Shown: positions 3,726-59,626, counted from the stretch's first letter. The stretch is 64,000 bases of DNA from a virus (IMGVR_UViG_3300045988_059494:7219-71218); one strand, 5' to 3'. Program-made: numbers and translations. Notes: generated by a model not told the origin, from the sequence alone.

Positions 3726-4280
3726 TTAACAAAACTGCCCAGCGATAAGATCAATAGCTTGAAAAAAGTTTCCTATATCTTGGTTTGCAAGTACCTGATA
3801 ATCAATATCCGTTAGATCGCTAAAATCTTGCTCGTCTGCGGAAAAGCGTCGAATAATTTCTTTAACATCTGGATCCTCTTCTCTTTTAAGCTGACGAAGC
3901 AAACGCTCTTTATCGCTAGCCTGTACATAATATACGGTTAAGTCAATAAGACCATCCTCCATAAGACAACGGATACCTTCTGGATTAAAGACACCAACAT
4001 TGATTTTGTCTTTTGATAAACTCGATAAAGCAGTGCCATAATGCCAGCCATTAAACTCTGTCGCTTCTAGCATATCACCATTTAATACCTTGGTAGTAAA
4101 TTCATCCACTGTCAAGAAATAATAGTTAACGCCATAGCGCTCTCCCTGTCGTGCAGGACGAGTAGTGCAACTAATGATCTCGTTAAATTTATCGGGGTAA
4201 CGTTTAACGAGAGCGTGAAGGATACTATCCTTCCCGCTTCCCGCCTTGCCGCAAATAGCAATTATTTTAGTTTTCTCCAT
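3726..4280 (-). CDS. guanylate kinase-like / deoxynucleoside monophosphate kinase
   Basis: P-loop GKAGSGKDS plus CTTRPARQGERYGVNYYF guanylate-kinase signature; probable start at MEKTK (track ORF 3726..4331 overlaps the upstream gene). Confidence 0.6.
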   Translation of the reverse strand: MEKTKIIAICGKAGSGKDSILHALVKRYPDKFNEIISCTTRPARQGERYGVNYYFLTVDEFTTKVLNGDMLEATEFNGWHYGTALSSLSKDKINVGVFNPEGIRCLMEDGLIDLTVYYVQASDKERLLRQLKREEDPDVKEIIRRFSADEQDFSDLTDIDYQVLANQDIGNFFQAIDLIAGQFC

Positions 4281-5673
4281 TATCTTCTTCCTCTCCTGTT
4301 GCTCGCTCGCTTCTAAGGATAAGCGAACCATCTGCTAATACCTCGTCAATATGATACAACTGATGTCTACCAGAACTTGCATACTTCTTGGTTACAAATT
4401 CATCACCACGACGAATACCCTGTACAACAATCATATTACCGCGATTGAACCAAGATTTCTCAATGACAGTCTTAGTACCATCACTATTTCGGCGGAATGT
4501 CTGTCTATCAAACAGCGAAAAATATTCCTGTCTAAACTTAACAGATACTACGCCAGTCGTTGTCAAGAGATATACAACACTCTTGGTTTTATTCTTTGCA
4601 ATACAAGTTCCGCAAATGCGGTTGAGCTTGTAAATTGGAATAAGAGATGCGCCTTTCTTGAAAGTCTTCTCAATAATCGGTTCCTCAGGAAGAGAAAAGA
4701 AGTTAACTAAACCATACTTAGCAGTATTTACATTACTTAATTCATGGTCGTGATAATAGAAGCAAAGAACTTCCATTTCCCAAGACGAGATGTTGCCACT
4801 AGCATACTTCTCCCAATCTTGCATAAAGATACGAGAGTTCAACTCATCAAGAATACTATCCTTATTCTCTTTAATCCAATCTCTAAAAATATCCATATAA
4901 CTCTGATAAACTTTATCCCAAGCCTTAATATTGATATACCAAGACTCGAGTTCACCATCAAGAAGTCCTTCACAATCAATCTCAGTCAAGAAATTAATCG
5001 CTCTTACATCAAGATGGTATCTCTCATGGTCAAATGGATCTTTACATTCAGCCTTTAAATATCTATTAAACTCAAATACTCGCTTTGGTAAAGCAAAAGT
5101 ATCATTCTTTGGAATTAAATCATAACGAATAAGACCCGGCATATTCTGCAAAGTTAATCGTTTCTTTTTGTCGCAAGTTAGCCACAAATATTCTACCATA
5201 GTCTTCTTGCGGTCTTTGAATTGATCGAACGCACCACCCTTAATAAGAGCAATCATAGCTTGCTTATTAGGAGCTATTCTATAATAGAAATCTATCATAG
5301 ATGCATATGGGCGATTTGCAATAATAGTCTTAATCAAATCGTTATTGACATTTGTTAAACCCTTTAAGCCAAACAAAATCTGATTATTCTCTGTATCGGG
5401 TTTAAAGCCAAGCTCAGAATGGTTAATATCAACAAGAGATACCTTAATACCCTTGTTACGAATTTCGCCAATCGCCTTTGCTAACTTTGTATAATCTGAC
5501 TGCTCGCTCTCATTTTCATCAATAGCACCACTATTAACGATAAGATATGCCGTATTCCAATACACAGGATTGAAATGTGTAGCAAGATAAAGAGTCTGCA
5601 TACCAACGAAGCTATAAGCAAGAGCATGAATAACGGAAAAACTATCGTGTTTACCCACTATTTCTAGTGGCAC
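4267..5673 (-). CDS. dnaE: DNA polymerase III alpha (DnaE) C-terminal portion (downstream half of split gene)
   Basis: Begins inside the conserved DnaE motif (GKHDSFSVIHALAYSFVGMQTLYLATHFNPVYW ~ NKSHsaAYa..YqTaylKahYP); the 6821..9334 ORF ends inside the same motif. Confidence 0.6.
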   Translation of the reverse strand: MPLEIVGKHDSFSVIHALAYSFVGMQTLYLATHFNPVYWNTAYLIVNSGAIDENESEQSDYTKLAKAIGEIRNKGIKVSLVDINHSELGFKPDTENNQILFGLKGLTNVNNDLIKTIIANRPYASMIDFYYRIAPNKQAMIALIKGGAFDQFKDRKKTMVEYLWLTCDKKKRLTLQNMPGLIRYDLIPKNDTFALPKRVFEFNRYLKAECKDPFDHERYHLDVRAINFLTEIDCEGLLDGELESWYINIKAWDKVYQSYMDIFRDWIKENKDSILDELNSRIFMQDWEKYASGNISSWEMEVLCFYYHDHELSNVNTAKYGLVNFFSLPEEPIIEKTFKKGASLIPIYKLNRICGTCIAKNKTKSVVYLLTTTGVVSVKFRQEYFSLFDRQTFRRNSDGTKTVIEKSWFNRGNMIVVQGIRRGDEFVTKKYASSGRHQLYHIDEVLADGSLILRSERATGEEEDNGEN

Positions 5674-6820
5674 AGACTATCTTTTACTATTAGCTTTTAA
5701 CTAATAGGATACCATTTCGGTTTTCAGTTGCTTCGTTTCCTAAAACAACGCTACGTACCAATAGTAGCCCTACTCCCAGTCTAACCCGGGATAGTCGTTA
5801 CAGGTTTCTTAAAGGATAAACAAGGTTATTATCTTTGAATGACTCTCCAATATTTATTCTTCTAACAGTTTCTTTAGAAGAACCATATAAATCAATTATT
5901 TCTTGGTAGGTCATATCAGTATGAAGCAGCGCATCTTTTATCTTGTCTGCCCTTATCGCTCTAACGTCTCTTTTTCGAATGGGATAAGTTGGATATAATC
6001 CTTTTTTTAATGTTCCAGCATTTATTTTCTTTACTGTGGAATATCCCATATCAAGTTGTTTAGCAATTTCTGCTAAAGATAAAGTAGAATTCGTTAGTAG
6101 TTCAATTAATTCGTCATAATCTGAATCATTCTTGTAATATTTATAGAGAGGATAATTTTGATTTTTGTCATAGAAATACAATCCATTATTGATGCTTGAA
6201 ATAAATGAAGCACTAATATTATACTTCTATTCTAACTCATAATAAGGAATACCTTCCTAGATTTCTTTTTTCAAAGAAGCTATTTGATCTTGTGATAAAA
6301 TAGAATTTCTAATTCTACTACCACCGCCAAGATCAGAATTATATCCCTCTCCATCTCCTCTAAAACTATTCTTTTCTTTTATCCAAAACTGTTCTCTTTC
6401 ATTCACAATATTTATATCATCTGTATAAATCTATTCTAAAACTTCAATTTCAAAATTGTCTATACCATATTGACGCATTTTACTGTGAATTAAATCGTTA
6501 TAAGAACTAGATTTAGAGTTTAAAGCACAAGAACGATGTTCTCTTATACGACGTTTTAAATTATTTGTTTGGCCAACATATTTGTGACCATTTATCTTGT
6601 TTGTGTAACAATATATGTAATACATTATATACCTCCATAGCATAATGTATTACCATGTTATCCTTTAAGACTTCCCACGGGATTATCATGGCAACACAGT
6701 TAGGATACTTTTTATATCCTCTATGTTACTTTAGAATTCCCCGTTAGCAATTAACAATTTTTGTCCAAAATTTTTAATTACCCTCGTGGTAAGCGAGTAA
6801 AATATCTAGGGGCAAGCATT
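5660..6820 (-). mobile_element. candidate group I intron (or free-standing HEG insertion) interrupting dnaE, carrying a GIY-YIG ORF
   Basis: ~1.16 kb between DnaE halves. Putative 5' exon ends GGT AAG TAT (GKY) followed by intron G; putative 3' end ...AUAGUG before GGT AAA CAC. A junction GKY|GKHDS would restore the conserved DnaE motif. Confidence 0.35.
5798..6643 (-). CDS. GIY-YIG homing endonuclease with 3 in-frame TAG codons
   Basis: N-terminal YIYCYTNKINGHKYVGQTNNLKRRIREH (GIY-YIG), middle EQFWIKEKNSFRGDGEGYNSDLGGGS, C-terminal HTH region; track ORFs 6431..6643 and 5798..6181 are in frame, separated only by TAGs. Confidence 0.7.
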
Positions 6821-9334
6821 TCACCCCATCTGCGGACCGAGACCAAATTTCCAGACATACTTACCTAGCTTCTCGGATTTCGCCGTATCCAAAACTTTCT
6901 GATGAAGCTCTGGAATTTTATTCATCTGTTTCTTACCAACAATCTTTCTTGCGGCATTCGCTTCAGCCAGACTAAAGTTACAAATATCTGGATCCCGCAA
7001 CATTTTCATTAGCTGCTCCTGAGAAGGAGGCACACCATAAGAAGATAAAAAGTAAGGTTCCAAAGTTTTCTGTTCTTGTTTAGTCAAGCCATTATTGTCC
7101 ATCTCTTTATACCAAAGAGAAATATCATGCTTATAACGAACATACTTTTCCATCGGAGTTTCTGCGCCCGGTTCAGAAGCCATAAGACGCATCAAACCAT
7201 TGGCATCCGCCATCTCTAACGGGTTATGCGGACGAATTTTCTTAGCTGCCTGTGCGCCTACTGCGCTATCAAACTGAAAACAACCAATTACATCATTGTT
7301 AGCCAGAGCGTTCCACATAGCTTCATCATCTTGCGGCAGGATAGATGGATGTAGATACTTATTATAGACCTCTCTAAGAGTTAAGTTTTGCTCAATAACT
7401 TTATCTGCTTGAAGCAGTTCAATGGTCTGAATGATAATATCCTGTACACTTGTTAGCAGGAAGTCATACTTTACGGAACCTGCGGCCTCTTGGTCATGCA
7501 GATCCCACTGTGTAATTAACGCGCCCTTAGGAGTTCGCATAACCGCGGCAGAGTCATAGATGTTTTCATCAAAAAGGATAACGCCAGAAGCGTGACTACT
7601 TCTTTTATTAACCATGCCTTGAATACGAATAATAATATCAAGCAAGCCTTCATACTGCGAAACCGCGGTTACAAATGCTTTAACAGGCTTTCTGCCTTTC
7701 TCTTGATTACCATTTACAACATCTTCAATCGGCCACAGGAAACCGCGCTCTTGAGGAATCAAAGAACTCAAGTATTGTGCTTCATCAACATCAATACCGT
7801 CGGGATATTCCTCAGAACGATAACCTCTACACGCAGTCAAGATTGCAGATTTTGTACCCTCTGTACCGAAAGTGCAAACCTGAATAAGACCAAGTTCTCC
7901 TCTTTCCTTGCGGATTTCGGCAAAAATCTTCTGAATTTTAGACGGCGCCAAGTCAAGATCAATATCGCCTAACTCAACACGTTCATCGTTAATGTAACGC
8001 CAGAAAGGTAAGTCCCACTCGAGGGGATCAAGCTGAGTAATACCAAGGAGATAATGGTTTAAAGCTGCACACGCAGAACCACGACCTGCGCCGACTGTAC
8101 TGCCGCAATTCCAGAACAAATCTACATAGTGCTTCAATGTATTAGGATATGCGAACATACAAGTCTGCAATTTCTCGCCAATGACTCTCTTTACTCTTGC
8201 TTCTTCTTCGAGTCTTTCCCAATACTCTTTCTTGTGGATAAGACCTTTCTCCTGCATTGCAATGATGCACTCCTGAATCCAATATTTCTCTTGCTCGTTA
8301 TCAGATTCAATCAAGGAAGTTAGTACCTTATAATCATCACGGAAAGTATCCATCATATCCGCGGGAACGCGAGACCAGTCGCTGCAATTATAATGAGTTA
8401 CTGCTACTTCTGGGACAGACTGATGCTTCTCAAGAGAATAAAACTCAATCTTATCCTTGATCTCATTAGAATTGTCATAGATAGAGTAAACTGTATCTAA
8501 GTCAAAGCTAGACAAAAGTAAATCAGTTGTCTCTTGTTCAGTCATAAGATATGTGAATTCATAGAATGAATCAACTTCTCGCTCACCACCCTTAGAATTA
8601 AGATAAGACTTGTGAACATATCTATCTTCTTTAGTTAGATAATGAGCATCCGTACCAACGCACATCTTTACATCAAATACTTGGGCAATTTTGAGCATTC
8701 TCTTGTTTGCAGTAACCTGATCACTGTTGCTTGCAGGAGCACACTCAACATAGAAGTTATCCTTGCCAAAAACGCTAATACAAAATTCCATAAAGTCAAT
8801 AATCTGTCTATGGTAACGATACGCATTATCAGTATCATTAGCTTTTTCGCAAGCATCGAGGTTAAGAATAGAATTACCTAATTCACCACCAATACACGCA
8901 GTCGTGCCGATAATGTCTCCCTTAAATCTCTGCATAACTTCCTGTAATTCTGATTTCAAAAGCGGGACTCGTTCCATACCACGATCATAGTAACTATTAG
9001 TCCACGCAATAGAAGACAGCTCTTTAAGACCTCTGTATCCATGCTCATTCTTTGCAAGCAAAATAAAATGATAATACTTTTGTCCCATATCTCGAGTATC
9101 GGTAAGATAAATCTCATTACCCAATGCTACAGTAAACTCAGGATGAGTTTCCTGAAGTTTCTTTGCATACTTATTTACTCGCATATGTGAACTTAAGGAT
9201 TCGTGATCTGTGATGGCAATACCAGTCAAACCAAGCTCAATAGCCTTATCAATTAGCTCTTCTGGATGATTGATACAATCGAGAAGGCGCAAATTACTAT
9301 ACTCAGTATGAGCATGGTTGTTAAAATAACTCAT
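6821..9334 (-). CDS. dnaE: DNA polymerase III alpha (DnaE) N-terminal portion: PHP domain plus polymerase core
   Basis: N-terminal PHP motif HAHTEYSNLRLLD...GIAITDHESL; 837 aa; ends within the conserved GKYGFNKSH-like motif. Confidence 0.8.
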   Translation of the reverse strand: MSYFNNHAHTEYSNLRLLDCINHPEELIDKAIELGLTGIAITDHESLSSHMRVNKYAKKLQETHPEFTVALGNEIYLTDTRDMGQKYYHFILLAKNEHGYRGLKELSSIAWTNSYYDRGMERVPLLKSELQEVMQRFKGDIIGTTACIGGELGNSILNLDACEKANDTDNAYRYHRQIIDFMEFCISVFGKDNFYVECAPASNSDQVTANKRMLKIAQVFDVKMCVGTDAHYLTKEDRYVHKSYLNSKGGEREVDSFYEFTYLMTEQETTDLLLSSFDLDTVYSIYDNSNEIKDKIEFYSLEKHQSVPEVAVTHYNCSDWSRVPADMMDTFRDDYKVLTSLIESDNEQEKYWIQECIIAMQEKGLIHKKEYWERLEEEARVKRVIGEKLQTCMFAYPNTLKHYVDLFWNCGSTVGAGRGSACAALNHYLLGITQLDPLEWDLPFWRYINDERVELGDIDLDLAPSKIQKIFAEIRKERGELGLIQVCTFGTEGTKSAILTACRGYRSEEYPDGIDVDEAQYLSSLIPQERGFLWPIEDVVNGNQEKGRKPVKAFVTAVSQYEGLLDIIIRIQGMVNKRSSHASGVILFDENIYDSAAVMRTPKGALITQWDLHDQEAAGSVKYDFLLTSVQDIIIQTIELLQADKVIEQNLTLREVYNKYLHPSILPQDDEAMWNALANNDVIGCFQFDSAVGAQAAKKIRPHNPLEMADANGLMRLMASEPGAETPMEKYVRYKHDISLWYKEMDNNGLTKQEQKTLEPYFLSSYGVPPSQEQLMKMLRDPDICNFSLAEANAARKIVGKKQMNKIPELHQKVLDTAKSEKLGKYVWKFGLGPQMG

Positions 9335-9396: not shown

Positions 9397-10558
9397 TCAA
9401 TCTTTCAACACCAAAGTTAATTTCTGCGCCGCACGAGTACAAGCTGTGTAAAGCCACCGAGCATGATCTGCTTGTCTTAATACTTCCTCGACTACTAATA
9501 CCTTATCATACTCGCTACCTTGGGATTTATGAGTCGTGATACAATAGCCATAGTCAAATTGCTCCGGTCGCAACTGCTTAGGAAACAGTCGAAAGTTTTC
9601 TCGATTTACTGTTGTTTCTTTGGTGGTAATAAGTTTCCAATCCATCAAGAGGTCATGAAATGTCTGATCTCTCTTATCAGCATTATCAATCGTCTCAGGG
9701 GTAAAATCAATTAAACACATAGGATTAAGCCACTTATTTGGGACGGTAGCAATCTTATCAATAGTACCAATAGTGCCATTGACGAGAGCGTCTCCAGTCT
9801 CAGTAATCTTATCCCAGTTGTTTTTAAGACAAATAACTTTATCTCCAACAATAGGATTAGGAATGTCTTCACCATAGCGCATATTGCGGTAATAATTATT
9901 TAATGTATGACGAGTAATATTTTTCCCGCAAAGAATCTGATCTGCCCATGTAAACATACCGTCACACATCTCTCTATGACGCACAATATTGATTTCAGTG
10001 CCTTTATAAGGCTTGATAAGTTTACCTTCTCGAATATCTGCGGACAGACGAATAATCTCGCTTTCTGCAGCCTGGCGCATAATTTCATCGAGGAAGATGT
10101 GCGGACGTTCAAGAATGCCATTTTCTTCGCCAATAGGCGGTAACTGACCGGGATCGCCGCAAGCAATTACATAAATGCCATGCGACAGCAGCAAATTCCA
10201 CATAGGCTTAGGTAGCATAGATACCTCGTCAACTACGATAATATCATAATCAGAAATATTATCTTTAGGGATATGAATAAAGCTGCCATCTGCGCGCGGA
10301 ACAGATTTATACAAGAGTCTATGTGCAGTCATAGCAGTGGGACAACCCTTATTTCTTAGTACCTGTGCAGCTTTGCCGGTATAAGCGATATATCCAACTC
10401 TTTCGGGATCAATATCGAGAGCGGAGATAATAAACTTGATAAGAGTAGATTTACCTGTTCCTGCTTTCAGGCGTAGCCAGCGATCACGGTATAATTTTCG
10501 TTTGCGTGATATCTGGCTACAGCAATTTTCAAACCCTCTTCTTGTTTTTTAGTTAATT
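9397..10558 (-). CDS. RecD/Dda-like superfamily 1 helicase; needs -1 frameshift or ~8 nt hop at GCC TGA just before Walker A
   Basis: ATG at 10556-10558 gives MELTKKQEEGLKIAVARYHANENYTVIAGYA then TGA. The Walker A (AGTGKSTLIKF) and the rest of the helicase (track ORF 9397..10332) are in the -1 frame, with no start codon of their own. Confidence 0.55.
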
Positions 10559-11088
10559 CCATCGGGTTTTACTTCCTCCTTTTCTTTTAAATTTAATTCA
10601 TCTATTGTCCACATATTATCATGCAATTCTTTATGACAATTAGAACATAATAATATACATTTTTTACTTTCTTCAACTGCTTCTTGCAACTTAAAGTGGT
10701 CATTACTTATAGTAAAATCCTTTTGTGATGGGTCTAAATGATGAAATTCTAATGCTTTTAGGCATTTACTATAGCCGCATCTTACACATTGACCTCCGCG
10801 TTGCTATTTTATTTTAGACAGAAAGGCCCCTCTTGTTAGCTAAATTCCTTCTGACATACAGTCATAACAACAACTTCTCTAATTAGCCGCAGCACTTTTA
10901 GGGGTGAAAGTTTTTCCACATATAGGGCATTTTTTTTCTTTCAGACCCGAGGCTCCTGTAATTTTTCTCTCTTGATTACGTTGCTTTCTAGCTTGATACA
11001 TACAAGCATCACTACAATATTTTTTTGTGGATTTTATAGCTTCAAACTCTTTTCCACAAACTGTGCATATATTTGTCATAAAAATCAT
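10549..11088 (-). CDS. HNH homing endonuclease with 3 in-frame TAG codons
   Basis: C-terminal CGYSKCLKALEFHHLDPSQKDF...LLCSNCHKELH (HNH); track ORF 10879..11088 ends at TAG and the frame continues; paralog of 53357..53896 with a TAG at the aligned position. Confidence 0.65.
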
Positions 11089-11123
11089 TCCTTCTATATA
11101 TAGTAACTTATCAGATTCTATAA

Positions 11124-11261
11124 TATATAGAAATATATGTAGATAAATTTACTTGATTTGTCCAAGGGTTTTATCAAACTGCGTACCACTAATTACAGTA
11201 TATGCTTCTCCGTTATGGTATCTATCAACGGCAATCTTGAGTCCTTCCTCTTGTTTACGTG
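11124..11261 (-). pseudogene. diverged duplicate of the helicase N-terminus (46 codons), truncated exactly before the Walker A position
   Basis: MELTRKQEEGLKIAVDRYHNGEAYTVISG... ~75% identical in protein to the 10558 copy but divergent in DNA; flanks the HNH gene. Confidence 0.4.
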
Positions 11262-19883: not shown

Positions 19884-20188
19884 TATTATTCTCCCACTGT
19901 ATTAGAATAGCCTACGACGTTAAAATTGCTAGCTAACCAACAATCTAAATCATCTACAACGGCGACGCATCTCTTGCCTCTAAAGTTATCTATATAGTAT
20001 GAATAGCTAATAAATCCCAAGTTTGATGGAAGCGGCCCCACTTCTGTGATAAATCGTTTTACCTGAGAAGAAGGAGCATTACCAACAAATAAAATTTGCT
20101 TATCGGGATTTTCTTTAGCAAGCTAATTAGCATATCGCATTAAGGTAGCTGTTTTACCAGCTCCTCTATTTGTAATTACCTTAAACAT
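19865..20188 (-). CDS. P-loop NTPase, hypothetical; in-frame TAG at codon 22
   Basis: GGAGG SD, MFKVITNRGAGKTATLMRYAN-TAG-LAKENPDKQILFVGNAP...; no ORF in track because of the TAG. Confidence 0.45.
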
Positions 20189-21099
20189 TAGGAGCCTCCT
20201 CTGGTACTATTTAGACCATAATCTTTTGTTTTATAGAACTCAATCCAATAAGTCTCTCGCTCATTCAACTAAGCTCGAGGCACTTCTTCCAAAACTTCGA
20301 ACATGAAATTATGCTGTCCAGATTTTTGCATTGCCTAATATAACTTATTAGTCGCTGGACCGTAAGCTAAAGAAGTTTTAATGTGTTGCCTAAAACGCTC
20401 TTTAATATCAACAGATTGGCCAATATAGGCCTAACCAGTGATTAGATTAGTAATCTTATAGATACCACAGACTTTAGAGGCTTTTGGAAATAACTTACTC
20501 ATAAGTGCATCATAAGATGGCTTATAATAAGTTTCCCAAATTAGCTTATCAATAGCTTCTTTCTTGAAGAAACGAGTCTATAATTCTCGCAACAGACTTA
20601 TATCATTAACACTTAAATCATCAATAGTTAGTCGATAATAGTCCTAATTTGCGGCACTCTCTTCTTGACGCTATTGAGCTTGGATATACGCTAACTATTT
20701 AGCTTCTAACTGCTCCAGTTTGTCTTGTTCTACTAGAACCTACTAGGCAATTTCCGCGAGTTCTTTTTCCTTTTGCTGTTCAAACTCTTGATAGACTTTT
20801 TCTAATTTTTCAGTTTCTCGCGCATATATTGTCTTTGCGCTCTCTTTGGCTTGCTGCTCTGCGTTTTCCCGCATTTTAGTAGCTGTATCAATTAAAGAGT
20901 TGATAACTTCATTCTACTAATCTATATTAGCTTTTAGCTACATTAAATCTAGATTATGTCGTTCAATATCTGATTCAATGCGCTCATTTTCTGCCTATCG
21001 CTCTCTATTTATTGATACTACTTTAAGCCGATCATTGCGGAGGTGGACAGTATATCCTGCCAAAGCAGCAATAATTAAACCTAATAGTAAATATATCAT
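20188..21099 (-). CDS. TM helix + coiled-coil + C-terminal GIY-YIG domain protein; 13 in-frame TAG codons
   Basis: MIYLLLGLIIAALAGYTVHL (TM), Q/E-rich coiled coil, then GIYKITNLITG-TAG-AYIGQSVDIKERFRQH...ETYWIEFYKTKDYGLNSTRGG (GIY-YIG). Single frame from ATG 21097-21099 to TAA if TAG is sense. Confidence 0.6.
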
Positions 21100-21110
21100 A
21101 ATTAAAAGAA

Positions 21111-21140
21111 GTCGGTAAGAGATATTCTCTTACCGACTCT
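21111..21140. terminator. hairpin terminator
   Basis: AGTCGGTAAGAG/CTCTTACCGACT inverted repeat after the 21148 gene stop. Confidence 0.5.
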
Positions 21141-34605: not shown

Positions 34606-34642
34606 TCACTTTCTATATATATTATAATATATATTTATAAAA
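34606..34642 (-). promoter_or_regulatory. conserved AT-rich promoter block
   Basis: ctttctatatatattataatatatatttataaaaaaa (plus); family member. Confidence 0.45.
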
Positions 34643-34644
34643 AA

Positions 34645-34674
34645 ATCAAAGGTTCTATTTCTAGAACCTTTGAT
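34645..34674. terminator. hairpin terminator
   Basis: ATCAAAGGTTCTA/TAGAACCTTTGAT. Confidence 0.55.
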
Positions 34675-34680
34675 TTTTAT

Positions 34681-35199
34681 TTAATTGGTTTGCTCAGTAA
34701 AATAGACTTGTGAAAGTCCACCAATGTCATCAATCTCGTAACTATCTACTTTTAATGACCAATCTTCCCATAAGTCCTGATGCGCTAACAAGAAAGCCAA
34801 TGGATCTTTTCGAAAAGTTTTATAGTCTTCGTCAGACAGCTCAAGATCTCCATTGTAATATCCGCCTCGTAGATGGCCAGTAACATAATCTACTTCTGCG
34901 GTTACATTAACTTTATGAGTTACCTCAGCCGGAGTATCAAGAGAGATATAATATTTTTTGCCATTGATTTTCTTCCAGAATGAATAATTACTCTTTGGAT
35001 AGCCGACTTTTCTTTCTAGAATATCTTCCTTGGTATTAGACTGCAATATAATGACCGGGTTTCTACGCGGGTCTTGACCAATTGGGTGGAAATCTACCCC
35101 ATCCGCGCCAGTGATTTCAAGCCATTCTTTCCATCCTGTTTCTCTTTGCCATTCAGCCATAATTATTCCTCTTCGCTCTGGATTAGGGATTCGATACAC
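34681..35199 (-). CDS. hypothetical protein (172 aa)
   Basis: ORF track. Confidence 0.3.
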   Translation of the reverse strand: MYRIPNPERRGIIMAEWQRETGWKEWLEITGADGVDFHPIGQDPRRNPVIILQSNTKEDILERKVGYPKSNYSFWKKINGKKYYISLDTPAEVTHKVNVTAEVDYVTGHLRGGYYNGDLELSDEDYKTFRKDPLAFLLAHQDLWEDWSLKVDSYEIDDIGGLSQVYFTEQTN

Positions 35200-42518: not shown

Positions 42519-43784
42519 TCATACTTCCTGTGCTTCCTCCATATCCGGTGCATTTTCAGTCTCCTTAATGATGCCTTCAAGTACCTTAAACTCGTAGGTC
42601 TTAGACTTGAAAGCAGTGAAGGAACGACGATTTACAATACGAATTACAACGCCTTCCTTGACATGAGTTTTGCCAATTGGGTCTGCAAGATCCTCGAAGT
42701 AATCATTGATGCGCTTCAACAGATCATCTACGGTAGTAAACTCAAAGTTGTCAATCACTGGTACTCGATTAAAGCCATGCTCATCACACCATGCAGTAAT
42801 CTCGTCAGGAGTCCACTCACGCTCGCCGTTCTCAGAAGTGATGCGGTAAATCCACATATGAGACTCACCCGGCTCGCATCCATAAGAGAAAATAGAACGC
42901 TTGCCGAACTGTTTCTGGAAAGCCTTGTCTTTCAGCTTCGAGTTATCGCCAATCGGCATGATAGTATCTCCATCGCCGAGACCATAGTAACCTACAACCT
43001 CGTAAAAGACTTCCATACCCGGCTCAAGGAACGGCTTCAGCGCCTCGTGATGCGGCAGTCGGAACTTATTATCACCGTAGTAGCCACCATCATCCTCAGA
43101 GACTACACAACGACGAGTACCAAGTACATAAGCCTGCTTAGTACGCTTCTTCATATGAAACAGGCGACGGAAGAAACCATTCGGCAGCTCCGCAACAGTA
43201 TTCATAGAACGCTGAGAAGTACCATGCATTTTAAGAGTCATGTTTAGCTGATCGCCCGGACGGAACGCATCAAGATTGTAAGCAAGCTGTGCAGTATCAA
43301 TGTGCATTGCAAAATCCGGATATACAACGCCCTCTGCCTTACGACCCTTATAAGAGGTCTTAGCCACAGTCTGCGGATACTTGCGCTTCGGGATATACTT
43401 GCGGCAGAACTCTTTATCATTGACGGTATTTACCTTATCACCATCCTCCCAGTGCTGATCGCCAAATACTTCATAGACATGGTCAAGAGAAATGACAATA
43501 CCAGAACTCTGGTTGCCACGGAGCTTAATTGCCCGGATGTGAGAGCTATTTTCCAAATATCCGCCTTGAGGAGTGCCATCGAGATTTTTTCGATATAAGG
43601 TGAAAGCATCGCCGAACCATCTCTCAATCTCTCCGTCTGTAGGAAGATAAAGCACTAACTCATTTTCTTTCATGTTGGACCCAACAATAACTCCTTCATT
43701 AAAACAATCTGCAAGCCACAGATTATCAGAATTGGGATCTTTATGCAGATTATTCAATTTTGTCACTAAAGCATAGTAAGCCAT
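42519..43784 (-). CDS. ATP-dependent RNA ligase (Rnl2-like nucleotidyltransferase with N-terminal extension)
   Basis: Motif I KMHGTS (KxHGxN), motif IV EGVVIR, motif V FKSK; 421 aa. Confidence 0.7.
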   Translation of the reverse strand: MAYYALVTKLNNLHKDPNSDNLWLADCFNEGVIVGSNMKENELVLYLPTDGEIERWFGDAFTLYRKNLDGTPQGGYLENSSHIRAIKLRGNQSSGIVISLDHVYEVFGDQHWEDGDKVNTVNDKEFCRKYIPKRKYPQTVAKTSYKGRKAEGVVYPDFAMHIDTAQLAYNLDAFRPGDQLNMTLKMHGTSQRSMNTVAELPNGFFRRLFHMKKRTKQAYVLGTRRCVVSEDDGGYYGDNKFRLPHHEALKPFLEPGMEVFYEVVGYYGLGDGDTIMPIGDNSKLKDKAFQKQFGKRSIFSYGCEPGESHMWIYRITSENGEREWTPDEITAWCDEHGFNRVPVIDNFEFTTVDDLLKRINDYFEDLADPIGKTHVKEGVVIRIVNRRSFTAFKSKTYEFKVLEGIIKETENAPDMEEAQEV

Positions 43785-44499
43785 TTAACTCATGTTCCTC
43801 CTCTTTACTAATTCGTTTATATATAAAACCTTTATATGTGTTTCTCTGCCCATTTAATACTCGATAAATTGCTTTATCAGTTTTTGCATCTGGACAAAAT
43901 TCTCTATATGCTGAAATTGCAGTAGGAAAAATAGCTAATAATTGACCATCTTTATCATACTTCGCAATCGGCTATCTTCTTGCTTCCAACGCCTTTTTCT
44001 TTGCATCTTCTCGATGACCATCTTGATAGGCTTGTTTTAATTTTTCACTTCGCTCTTTTTTTAAGGAAGGATTGTCGATAAACTTCTATTTTAGAGAGTT
44101 GCTAATCTTTTCGTTTCTTTTGTTACTATAAGTTCGATTTTTAGCAGCTAGAGTCATATGCTGTCGATACTCTGGATCTTCCCATAGCGACTTAACAGAC
44201 TCGCCTATCTGTTTTCTAACTTCTTCCGTTTGATAGTTTCCGCCTGGAGAGACATTGTAACCAAAACTTGTATCTAAAAGATTTAATTCTTTGATTGTGT
44301 CTATTTCTTTTTGTCGAATTAAATCTTCATTATCGGATTCTAATATCACTTCTTTAGTTACATTTTCCCAGCCATATTTTTCAATAGCGTAGCCGACACG
44401 CTATCCTTTATATCTCCCCGATGCTCGCTGTTCAATGGAATTTCTAGTAATTCCGCAGTATTTCTTCCCATTTGGGAAAGTGTATAAATAACAAATCAT
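43750..44499 (-). CDS. GIY-YIG homing endonuclease (I-TevI-like architecture) with 3 in-frame TAG codons
   Basis: AGGAGG SD; MICYLYTFPNGKKYCGITRNSIEQRASGRYKG-TAG-RVGYAIEKYGWENV (GIY-YIG), NUMOD-like repeats, C-terminal DNA-binding tail; track ORF 44086..44349 is the middle fragment. Confidence 0.65.
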
Positions 44500-44595
44500 C
44501 TAGATAACCTCCTAAATCTTTCTACTTATATTAAAAATTACTAGGAGGTTATTTAGAAGTTTTGTCCAAACTTTCTTCCTTATAATAAGCTCTTA

Positions 44596-51816: not shown

Positions 51817-53391
51817 TTAGTGAATCTGCGCGTAGCGCTCACTGTCCAGCTTCTCAAGAACAAGAGCAAGTCCGTCCTTGCCGCTCAGAATCTGCTGGAT
51901 CATAACAGGGCTGAAACCACTTACGTAGCTAAAGCCGTCCCCAATCGCGGGAATGTTGTTATTACGCGCGTTCAGGTTCCAAAAGACACAACTCGGCATC
52001 TTGTAGCCACACCGCGCCCACTTAGCCTTCATGTCTTCAAACAGAGTGTTGATCCGCTGCATTTCCATGCCACGACCCCAGCCGCCAGTAACATGGTTAC
52101 TCGTTACACAGCGATCAAATTCCATATCAGAAAAGATATATACACGCTCAGGCATATCTTCTGCACGAACAGACTGCTTCATAGCGGTCGCAAGCAGCAT
52201 ATCGAAAACAGCTTCGATATTAGTATTCGCACCCCAATCCGCACTCACGCAGCGGCACAGCTTATCCGTAATGTCTGCACCCTCGAACTTTACCAGCTTC
52301 GGAGAGCCAGAAAAAGTAATGAAGTGGTTAGCAAACGGACCGTGCGCCTTATCTGCAATGTATGCGCCCATAGAAACAGCCGCTTCCATAGGAACACCAG
52401 ACATAGAGCCAGAAACATCGACAACTGCGATGCCGTTCTCTACATTGTCGCCATAGAAATTGGGCAGATTATCCCAATACTTCTGGAGCATTAGACGCTC
52501 AGAGTCTTCCAGACTCTTACGGCGAGAGCTGAAGGCACGATGAGCAATGTCATGCGGATACAGCGCACCAGCGTTAACGGTAGTTTCAGTATCCTTAGCA
52601 AAAGCCTCATACTTTGCCTTAATCATATCGCGACGCGCAAATGCGTTACGATAGATAATACCTGCACGAGAAGGAATTTTATCAAACTCAATCTCGTCCC
52701 AACGGTTTTCAGACATAAGGCGTTCGACAATGCGGATGCGCTCGCGCAGTACAGACAAGGTCTTGCGGTACTCCTTCGGAGTCATATGGAAATGATTACG
52801 AGAGATCGTCGCCAGACGACGCGACTCCTTAGAAGAAGTGTTCTCAGACTTCAGCCACTTAGCAAGAAGCGACGGAGTTTTACAAGAAACATCGAGCGCA
52901 AGCTGATGTCTCATAATCTTGAAAGCCTCATCTTCCAGAGGAGTGTCGACAAAGACGTAGAAATCATCCCAACGACCATACTCGGGCACGAACTTCAGGT
53001 TACGGCGCATTGCTGCGGTTTCATTGAAGGCAAGCCAACGAGAAACCACGCGGAAGAAACGACGTTCTCCCTGTCCACCACGCACATCGCGCAGATAAAA
53101 CAGACACTTCAGTGCATGAGCCTCGTCCTCATCAAAAGCAGCCTTGAACAGAGTGATGCAATCTGCATCGGTGCGCTGACGATAAGCGCCTCCAAGCGCA
53201 AAAAGATCCATAAGTCCATTTAGCGTAGACTTATGAGTAATAGCGCCATTCTCAGTCAGAGTGAAGTTAGTGTCCTGCTTCATAGCGTTCATAAAAGTAT
53301 TCATTGTATCAATCTCCTTTTGATTTTTAGTCGCTCCCTTGGACAAGGGAGATAGTTTATTGATAATGTTCTTCTGCGTGACAATTTGCAC
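51817..53391 (-). CDS. CobT-like protein with C-terminal vWA domain (MIDAS DVSGSMSG)
   Basis: vWA motif AVVDVSGSMSG; 524 aa; partner of the MoxR-like ATPase. Confidence 0.5.
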   Translation of the reverse strand: MQIVTQKNIINKLSPLSKGATKNQKEIDTMNTFMNAMKQDTNFTLTENGAITHKSTLNGLMDLFALGGAYRQRTDADCITLFKAAFDEDEAHALKCLFYLRDVRGGQGERRFFRVVSRWLAFNETAAMRRNLKFVPEYGRWDDFYVFVDTPLEDEAFKIMRHQLALDVSCKTPSLLAKWLKSENTSSKESRRLATISRNHFHMTPKEYRKTLSVLRERIRIVERLMSENRWDEIEFDKIPSRAGIIYRNAFARRDMIKAKYEAFAKDTETTVNAGALYPHDIAHRAFSSRRKSLEDSERLMLQKYWDNLPNFYGDNVENGIAVVDVSGSMSGVPMEAAVSMGAYIADKAHGPFANHFITFSGSPKLVKFEGADITDKLCRCVSADWGANTNIEAVFDMLLATAMKQSVRAEDMPERVYIFSDMEFDRCVTSNHVTGGWGRGMEMQRINTLFEDMKAKWARCGYKMPSCVFWNLNARNNNIPAIGDGFSYVSGFSPVMIQQILSGKDGLALVLEKLDSERYAQIH

Positions 53392-53896
53392 ATAGTAATA
53401 AACATTTATCTACTTCTTCATAAAGTTTATCTATATTGTCGAGTGTTACTCCAATTTCGGCTATACCGAAATCTTTTTGGGTTGGGTCAAGATGGTGAAA
53501 TTGTAAAGCTCCTTCGCATTTATCATAACCACAACGCTCACATTTTCCGCCTTTATAAAGAATTAGCTAGTGTTTGATGGCTTTTTGACGAGCCTTACCG
53601 CTATCTTGGCTTGGAGAGCAATCATAACAATAAATGCGATTATTGACTTTTGTTTTATATTTCTTCCCACAAATCGGGCATATCTTCTCAATCTCTTCTT
53701 GAGCAATATTGGGATTAGTACATTTACCACACGACTAAGTGGGCCTGCTACTTGTTAAACTTGAACCTCTAATTTCCTTTTCAGTTCCACAGTCACATCT
53801 GCATTTCCAATAGGTCTTACCATTGCGGTTTGGCGCTCTTTCAATAACGACTAACTTACCAAAACGCATACCAGTTAAATCTCTTAAATTTGGCAT
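53357..53896 (-). CDS. HNH homing endonuclease with 2 in-frame TAG codons (paralog of 10549..11088)
   Basis: SD GGGAGG; CERCGYDKCEGALQFHHLDPTQKDF...LLCANCHAEEH; the TAG in KAIKH-TAG-LILYKGGKCERCGY aligns with the TAG in SKIK-TAG-QRGGQCVRCGY of the paralog. Confidence 0.65.
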
Positions 53897-53979
53897 TTTA
53901 ATTCCTCCCTTACTATATATAAGAGAAGACCTTAATAGACAAACGGATTTTGTCCAATGTTAGTTTATCTTTTTGTCTA

Positions 53980-59552: not shown

Positions 59553-59626
59553 TGGTGCGGGGCCGCGGATTCGAACCGCTTTTTCAGCCTTTTAACGCTG
59601 ATGGTCTACTTATAGCCTAGCCCCGC
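59553..59626 (-). tRNA. atypical tRNA-like gene with an apparent 8-nt anticodon loop (GUUAAAAG); anticodon unresolved (UAA, AAA or quadruplet)
   Basis: Acceptor GCGGGGC/GCCCCGC, T-loop GGTTCGAATCC, A73, CCA; anticodon stem UCAGC/GCUGA encloses 8 nt; weak D-stem. Confidence 0.4.

Follow-up and report, generated by a model that had tools for sequence, protein, structure and literature searches.

Introduction

The closest described system to the locus reported here is the td intron of phage T4, a group I intron which interrupts a conserved gene of DNA metabolism (thymidylate synthase) and which carries the open reading frame (ORF) of a GIY-YIG endonuclease, I-TevI, between the two strands of its P6 helix. 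The DNA analysed here, a viral stretch of 64,000 nucleotides (IMGVR_UViG_3300045988_059494:7219-71218, hereafter the window), very probably contains an element of this kind at 6822..5646 on the minus strand, namely a mobile self-splicing group I intron of the td-like subgroup IA, and its host, in place of thymidylate synthase, is a dnaE-type gene for a family C DNA polymerase.

DnaE genes are well-known hosts of inteins, an example being the split intein of Synechocystis DnaE; in the cyanobacterial case too a DnaE gene is interrupted by a selfish element and the pieces are rejoined after expression, but by protein trans-splicing, at another site and with no ribozyme. The polymerases of phages SPO1 and SP82 are Pol I (family A) enzymes, and the endonuclease I-HmuI is an HNH nickase. 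The gene 31 introns of the SPO1/SP82 family are endonuclease-bearing group I introns at a conserved phage polymerase site (cited in PMC2814812), and so resemble the window in being of the self-splicing type and lying at a conserved site of a replicative polymerase, while the window differs in having a family C polymerase and a GIY-YIG endonuclease. For phages with altered genetic codes, Borges et al. (bioRxiv 10.1101/2021.08.26.457843) describe an early-gene group I intron endonuclease with recoded in-frame stops in 'Agate' phages, and propose that recoding delays endonuclease production until late infection. In 'Agate' phages it is TGA that is recoded (to Trp), whereas in the window it is TAG (to Gln), and the locus would be a TAG-code parallel to that published TGA case. 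The searched text of that paper makes no mention of DnaE or DNA polymerase III, and a search of the open-access literature found no description of a phage dnaE-type gene interrupted by a group I intron. The proposed intron is a selfish element of a classic type, but one seldom noticed in host genes such as this and overlooked by present annotation tools. The window would extend to family C phage polymerases the rule that such introns lie at conserved sites of DNA-metabolism genes.

Boundaries of the insertion and the restored polymerase

Standard ORF calling gives two minus-strand ORFs, of 837 amino acids (aa) (ORF 1, 9334..6821, C-terminal end ...EKLGKYVWKFGLGPQMG, tail ...YVWKFGLGPQMG) and 468 aa (ORF 2, 5673..4267, starting MPLEIVGKHDSFSVIHALAYSF..., also given as MPLEIVGKHDSFSVIHALAY...). 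Pfam places PHP, Pol III alpha NTPase and finger domains in the first and HHH_6 in the second, and across both exons PHP, palm/NTPase, finger and HhH follow one another in that order, as in DnaE/Pol III alpha of family C. An initial annotation of the window had described these ORF ends correctly, with a GIY-YIG ORF between them holding three in-frame TAGs and no other stop, and had proposed an endonuclease-bearing group I intron, of td/I-TevI layout, within a conserved DnaE motif. This proposal is borne out: covariance models built independently of the window detect each half of the ribozyme, the insertion is missing with base-pair precision in relatives of about 97% identity, and its deletion gives a gap-free polymerase of 1,296 aa. 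The locus comprises:

6823..9334, minus strand: dnaE-type exon 1, 2,512 nucleotides (nt), 837 codons plus U 6823, the first base of a Tyr codon; colinear with the uninterrupted ORF of the relative L004
5646..6822, minus strand: probable group I intron of 1,177 nt, running from G 6822 to G 5646 (omega G); delimited by intronless alleles
5798..6625, minus strand: GIY-YIG homing endonuclease gene, 275 codons plus TAA, between the two P6 strands
4267..5645, minus strand: dnaE-type exon 2, 1,379 nt, starting AU AGU UUU..., which finishes the Tyr codon; contains HHH_6

A junction-spanning peptide, used as a tblastn query, retrieved homologues from Enterococcus phage VRE9_2 and from SPbeta (yorL), neither of which is interrupted; YorL is the closest characterised homologue of the polymerase. 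Both align over the whole tail of ORF 1 (YIWDSAVSVQMG and YVWNVQFKRQFG) and then read YSFSILH or YSFSLLH, corresponding to SFSVIH of ORF 2. A scan of the IMG/VR database retained 80 relatives, every one matching contiguously over the junction, and L004 and L005, with 99% protein identity and about 97% DNA identity to the window on both sides of the site, have the gene uninterrupted. Blastn alignment places window positions 6825 and 5640 at L004 positions 4407 and 4415 respectively, and in L025 window 6823 and 5645 fall on adjacent bases, so that these three intronless relatives set the boundaries at 6823|6822 and 5646|5645 and the insertion is exactly 6822..5646 of the minus strand. A megablast search of the locus against GenBank phages gave no match. 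The junction suggested initially, GGT AAG TAT | GGT AAA CAC (LGKYGKHDSF), is excluded by both the protein and the DNA alignments, in which homologues align through all of the ORF 1 tail and resume at SFSVIH; the 5' splice site given by L004, L005 and L025 lies 41 nt downstream of the one suggested and the 3' splice site 9 nt downstream. The non-coding flanks of the endonuclease gene which had been noticed do exist, but they measure 197 nt (6822..6626) and 152 nt (5797..5646) rather than about 180 and 120 nt.

Joined at these boundaries the exons read ...CAG AUG GGG U|AU AGU UUU UCC GUU AUU CAU..., giving QMGYSFSVIH, with the predicted ligated junction ...AUGGGGU|AUAGUUUU... (equally ...CAGAUGGGGU-AUAGUUUUUCC... 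across 6823|5645). The spliced coding sequence has 3,891 nt, encodes 1,296 aa and contains no in-frame TAG, and its product, when aligned with the L004 ORF, is identical at 1,281 of 1,296 residues without a single gap. The product also aligns without a break to residues 725-947 of the Thermus aquaticus Pol III alpha, for which a structure is solved, across ...FANYGFNKSHAAAYS..., in which the insertion site falls between N and Y. The initial annotation was right that the conserved motif is split, QMG-Y-SFSVIH being the YGFNKSH motif of Pol III alpha, and the intron lies in phase 1 of the Tyr codon in the G-Y-S-F-S-x-x-H motif of a SPbeta-YorL-type replicative polymerase. The TGA which closes ORF 1 is made up of the last exon base, U 6823, and the first two intron bases, and the GTG 'start' of ORF 2 at 5673 is an intronic codon, located at the 3' end of P7.

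The intronless site of L004 reads ...ATGGGCTATTCATTC... and the spliced-exon site of the window ...ATGGGGTATAGTTTT...; L004 and L005 have GGC/GGT UAU UCA UUC here, while every intron-bearing allele has GGGGU|...G|AUAGUUU. Six of the 30 site-adjacent exon bases differ between the window and L004, all of them synonymously, against an overall difference of 2.8%. Such clustering is consistent with co-conversion in the course of homing, with selection on P1/P10 pairing, or with the two together, and a natural pair of intron-plus and intron-minus alleles at about 97% identity provides a clean system for homing studies.

Evidence for a group I ribozyme

Two covariance models were built from other phage introns with the window left out, R1 for the 3' half of the ribozyme (40 introns) and R2 for the 5' half (20 introns). 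R1 matched the window at 5806..5637 on the minus strand with 109.1 bits (E=3.6e-20) and R2 at 6846..6670 on the same strand with 70.2 bits (E=1.1e-18), that is, on the strand of the gene, in the correct order and on either side of the endonuclease ORF. R1 also finds the T4 td intron (44.6 bits, E=7e-7) and both annotated ribonucleotide reductase introns of SPbeta, bnrdE and bnrdF (E about 1e-4), and so links the family with group I introns established by experiment. R2 scored 13 bits (E=0.08) on td and gave no match on the bnrdE and bnrdF introns, so that the SPbeta introns are like that of the window in being detected by R1 but differ from it in the half modelled by R2. Elsewhere in the window a weak R1 match (34634..34728, minus strand; 17 bits, E=0.35) has no R2 partner and is probably due to chance.

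A motif shared by the window and an intron of Lactobacillus phage SA-C12, GACUAU-hairpin-AGUA-stem-UAUUGGUAC, was used as a pattern to scan IMG/VR and was found in at least 120 stretches, of which those inspected form one family. The 3' half of its members has, in order, CCUGUAWC, GACUAUC, the P7.1 hairpin, AGUA, P7.2, GAAA, the 3' strand of P3 and P8, after which come a conserved A-rich segment whose last bases are AUAGUC and then P9 with a GAAA loop. Their 5' half holds UUACCA, GCUAACGRGG and CCCGUGGGAA, and in most members the ORF is inserted directly 5' of CCUGUAWC. In the window the proposed structure consists of the following parts, all on the minus strand:

6670..6822: 5' ribozyme half (R2 match and helix map)
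6809..6827: P1, exon GGGGU (6827..6823) and intron GA with UUGCCCC (6815..6809), seven of seven pairs standard
GAUAUU 6806..6801 with GGUAUC 5713..5708: P3 (helix map)
6797..6783: first hairpin, CUCG-CUUACCA-CGAG, with the loop CUUACCA
6782..6746: second (GGU...GCU) hairpin, GGUAAUUAA...UUAAUUGCU
6744..6739 with 6682..6677: P4, ACGGGG/UCCCGU
6735..6734 with 6687..6686: P5, 2 base pairs (bp)
6728..6721 with 6699..6692: P5a (helix map)
6720..6715 with 6707..6702: P5b (helix map)
GGG 6676..6674 with CCU 5804..5802: P6, its strands on either side of the endonuclease gene
5646..5806: 3' ribozyme half (R1 match and helix map)
5796..5791 with 5680..5675: P7, GACUAU/AUAGUC
5790..5775: P7.1 (covariation)
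5770..5764 with 5754..5750 and 5720..5719: P7.2 (covariation)
5749..5727: additional hairpin within the 3' strand of P7.2 (helix map)
5707..5687: P8 (helix map)
5670..5655: P9, CCACUA-GAAA-UAGUGG
3' tail: GUAAACACG, its last base being omega G 5646 (sequence)

All of the helices proposed in the window are fully paired with standard pairs only, and P3 and P7 cross to form a pseudoknot. The 5' splice site is marked by a wobble pair, U 6823·G 6813, in P1, and the same P1 is present in eight same-site introns; the exon sequences GGGGU| and G|AUAGUUU are common to nine same-site loci (the window and eight IMG/VR contigs). Omega G 5646 stands directly before the 3' exon, and ...G|AUAGUUU is kept in all same-site introns examined.

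As in td, the P4 strands are ACGGGG/UCCCGU and the P7 strands GACUAU/AUAGUC, the GIY-YIG ORF lies between the P6 strands with its stop codon in a conserved CCU(G)UAAC just 5' of P7 (CCUAAC in td), and P7.1 and P7.2 follow P7, being placed between it and the 3' strand of P3 in the arrangement which td has in the R1 alignment and which is typical of subgroup IA. The 5' domain differs: td has P2 between P1 and P3, but no P2 lies there in the window's intron, a departure from td-like subgroup IA2, and the 5' strand of P3 begins 2 nt after P1 and is followed by two hairpins before J3/4-P4. A further difference from td is the hairpin added to the 3' strand of P7.2. The loop of the first hairpin contains UACCA (6791..6787), complementary to UGGUA (5760..5756) in the P7.2 loop, and both loops change jointly to UAUCA/UGAUA in six same-site introns (columns 51-56 with 292-296 of alignment A3), which suggests that they may form a tertiary kissing contact. 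A td-style P3 drawn from the GCU just before AACGGGG was ruled out, as these bases form the 3' side of a hairpin that covaries, and the Rfam alignment of the SA-C12 intron was dropped as a guide to P3-P5 because it misplaced P3 into P5.

Compensatory changes support the structure. RNAalifold applied to the R1 alignment independently recovers P7, P7.1, P7.2 and P9, with compensatory changes in 17 of 23 pairs, and in an alignment of 22 introns from which the ORFs were deleted 87.5% of cells were paired, compared to 72.7% after shuffling, a value reached by none of 500 shuffles. In this alignment 54 pairs were changed on both sides, and the covariation score was 0.334, compared to 0.125 for shuffled alignments and 0.06-0.13 for slid controls; the slid comparison is somewhat favourable, as the structure was derived from the window, but the compensatory counts are independent of that. 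Compensatory changes occur in P4, P5, P5a, P6, P7.1 (5 of 5 pairs), P7.2 (7 of 7 pairs) and P9, while P7 is invariant. A blastn search of the ORF-deleted introns against annotated phages gave only unannotated partial matches, in Enterococcus, Lak and Lactococcus phages.

The endonuclease gene and TAG as a sense codon

The endonuclease gene starts at ATG 6625, preceded by the Shine-Dalgarno sequence GGAGG (6636..6632), and orthologues start here with MYYIYCY.... Its 275 codons include three in-frame TAGs (6433..6431, 6259..6257 and 6229..6227) but no TAA, TGA or frameshift, and its TAA stop (5800..5798) lies within the conserved core element CCUGUAAC. Residues 1-87 match the Pfam GIY-YIG domain (PF01541, E=2.5e-11), residues 122-208 have helix-turn-helix matches, PHROG homing endonuclease families are matched, and identity to the catalytic domain of I-TevI (I-TevI residues 5-84) is 34%. 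I-TevI has a zinc finger and a helix-turn-helix, whereas the window protein has repeated helix-turn-helix elements and the in-frame TAGs. The gene has a GC content of 28.5%, compared to 38.9% for dnaE, and this low value together with the clustered exon substitutions at the site looks like a signature of mobility; cleavage and homing by the endonuclease are presumed from the same substitutions and from the presence or absence of the intron among relatives of about 97% identity.

Recoding of TAG in this gene, as the initial annotation had it, agrees with the orthologues and with the near absence of long ORFs that end in TAG. Across six endonuclease genes the in-frame TAGs number 19, and neither TAA nor TGA occurs in frame; in L206, L207, L212 and L215 a TAG stands where YVGQT has its invariant Gln, and TAGs also stand at other positions of Gln. 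The minus strand of the window has 57 long ORFs, and TAG terminates just one of them, which overlaps tRNA genes. These observations support the reading of TAG as a sense codon, probably for Gln, in this phage. Four more endonuclease genes of the window have in-frame TAGs and no other stop:

10549..11148, minus strand: HNH gene, 3 in-frame TAGs
20188..21129, minus strand: coiled-coil-plus-GIY-YIG gene, 13 in-frame TAGs
43750..44592, minus strand: GIY-YIG gene, 3 in-frame TAGs
53357..53959, minus strand: second HNH gene, 2 in-frame TAGs

The large replication and nucleotide-metabolism genes around them have no in-frame TAG, and the only confirmed genes of the window that require TAG to be read are endonuclease genes, some shorter ORFs having one or two TAGs besides. 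As five endonuclease genes need TAG read-through while their TAG-free neighbours, including the polymerase, do not, the idea of recoding as a timer is testable here at one locus.

One tRNA-like gene of the window (59553..59626, minus strand) has an 8-nt anticodon loop, GUUAAAAG, for which ARAGORN gives a 4-base anticodon 'taaa' and Rfam a tRNA score of 31 bits; it is not a CUA suppressor.

Proposed mechanism and alternative explanations

The exact boundaries, the ribozyme architecture with its covariation, the restored reading frame, the presence/absence polymorphism and the use of TAG as sense are shown here; splicing, the activity and target of the endonuclease and the timing of expression are inferred. 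The interrupted gene would be transcribed as one pre-mRNA, in which P1 would form between the exon tail GGGGU and the internal guide GCCCC; guanosine would attack after U 6823, omega G 5646 would set the 3' splice site, and the ligated exons (...AUG GGG U-AU AGU UUU...) would encode the polymerase of 1,296 aa. In unspliced RNA translation would halt at the UGA made at the junction. The endonuclease, translated from its own Shine-Dalgarno sequence, would cut intronless alleles, and the intron would presumably spread by repair-mediated homing. With its TAGs read as Gln in this TAG-recoded phage, translation of the endonuclease should wait for active suppression, while the TAG-free polymerase exons could be translated from the start.

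Several results weigh against parts of this account. Searching with RF00028, the Rfam group I intron model, over the whole window at gathering thresholds and over 5400..7100 at E<=10, the check proposed with the initial annotation, gave no group I match at all. The same model, however, scores T4 td at only 31 bits and the SA-C12 intron at 32 bits, both below the gathering threshold of 50, and that threshold was reached by none of the 14 scanned family loci (introns matched by the pattern); because td itself falls below it the negative is uninformative and weighs little, the model being insensitive to this subgroup and to ORF-bearing introns. Some helices are short (P5 has 2 bp, P10 about 3 bp, and P3 six pairs of which two are G·U wobbles), and P3, the first hairpin and P8 are only 49-67% paired in the MAFFT alignment (P3 67%). 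We attribute these low scores to offsets in that alignment, since pairwise duplex predictions do show P3, which is kept by at least eight different sequences, such as AACACC/GGGUGUU and UAUACC/GGUAUA, or GUUUCUUUU/GAAAGAGAAAC and UUGCUUUU/AAAAGAGCAA. A rival explanation is a split polymerase, in which a dead intron or an endonuclease cassette separates polypeptides of 837 and about 460 aa that assemble non-covalently, as for T4-like genes split by free-standing endonucleases. Standard calling does give two ORFs, the SA-C12 homologue is entered in RefSeq as two genes, and PHROGs has a fragment family for each piece. Nevertheless we consider a split enzyme quite improbable, and the two-subunit DnaE with a free-standing endonuclease, named in the initial annotation as the alternative, is rejected, because both ribozyme halves are intact and score as highly as those of other family members, the core covaries, the break lies inside a contiguous conserved motif which near-identical relatives encode within one ORF, and the sole in-frame start for the second piece, GTG 5673, lies within P7 and has no Shine-Dalgarno sequence.

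A different possibility is that the intron splices but its endonuclease is a decaying pseudogene, with the TAGs as true stops and mobility lost. The three TAGs of the window align with Lys, Lys and Asn of orthologues and not with Gln, no tRNA with the anticodon CUA was found by ARAGORN or Rfam among the 12 tRNAs of the window, and no near-identical copy of the intron was found, the best having about 72% identity. Decay is nonetheless unlikely, if a little less so than a split polymerase, as a gene of 28.5% GC has kept 275 codons free of TAA, TGA and frameshifts, the orthologues are interrupted by TAG alone, even at the invariant Gln of YVGQT, and the other four endonuclease genes of the window carry 2-13 TAGs each with no other stop. 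An intein would suit a DnaE gene, but a stop codon opens the insertion, and the ORF inside it is not joined in frame with the exons; a group II intron would be expected to have a reverse transcriptase and a domain V, neither of which is present, and an assembly chimera is excluded by the same insertion at the same site in independent contigs, so that we give these three next to no credence. A mobile group I intron is, of these explanations, the one which we strongly favour.

Same-site and related introns

The 5' junction pattern CAGAUGGGGU...UUGCCCCUA was found in twelve IMG/VR stretches, and eight distinct contigs examined in full have introns of 1,139-1,189 nt with an orthologous endonuclease and ribozyme halves 834-867 nt apart. 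The window intron is about 71-72% identical to these copies, which is similar to the divergence of the exons, and no recent donor of the intron is among the copies sampled. In Lactobacillus phage SA-C12 (NC_047760, our L003) an ORF-less intron of 357 nt (3924..4280) interrupts the same codon as in the window; it is matched by RF00028 with E=3e-6 and by R2 with 27 bits, and its junction is likely to be GGG U|CU UUU AGU, one residue shorter than that of the window. RefSeq labels the SA-C12 polymerase exons 'DNA polymerase' and 'DNA binding protein'.

Other dnaE-type sites contain extra introns of the same family, in L033 (2216..3243, equivalent to about window position 8000, near aa 445), L210 (618..4089), L206 (4024..5024) and L214 (5588..6685), with L210 having three introns within 4 kb. 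A layout of three exons is reflected in the PHROG families phrog_7513, phrog_21652 and phrog_20695, which consist of fragments. Such polymerases are now called as two or three genes, Rfam misses the intron and PHROGs families are built of fragments, and a model specific to the family would correct how such genes are called in many genomes of gut and dairy phages.

A wider reading which joins these results can be put forward tentatively, and we would ourselves rate it as possible rather than probable. On this reading there would be a large unannotated family of phage subgroup IA introns (at least 120 IMG/VR stretches), invisible to Rfam, with a rearranged 5' domain (the 5' strand of P3 directly behind P1, then two hairpins before P4) and a covarying 5-bp kissing interaction by which the first of these hairpins docks on the P7.2 loop; the family would repeatedly invade DnaE-type genes (as many as three introns in one gene). 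Where the phage is TAG-recoded, the endonucleases of the family and the free-standing endonucleases alike would be the only genes of the early region written with TAG, and code switching would act as a timer separating polymerase synthesis from endonuclease activity. The most novel parts are the rearranged 5' domain of the family with its kissing loop, and the way in which TAGs are concentrated in endonuclease genes while the rest of the early region lacks them.

Members of the family also occur beside other group I introns. In L128 (8015..10108 and 10848..10896, both on the minus strand) three introns which reach the Rfam threshold for group I lie with one of the window's family within about 3 kb, and in L133 (13518..14969, minus strand) two Rfam matches lie beside a member of the window's family.

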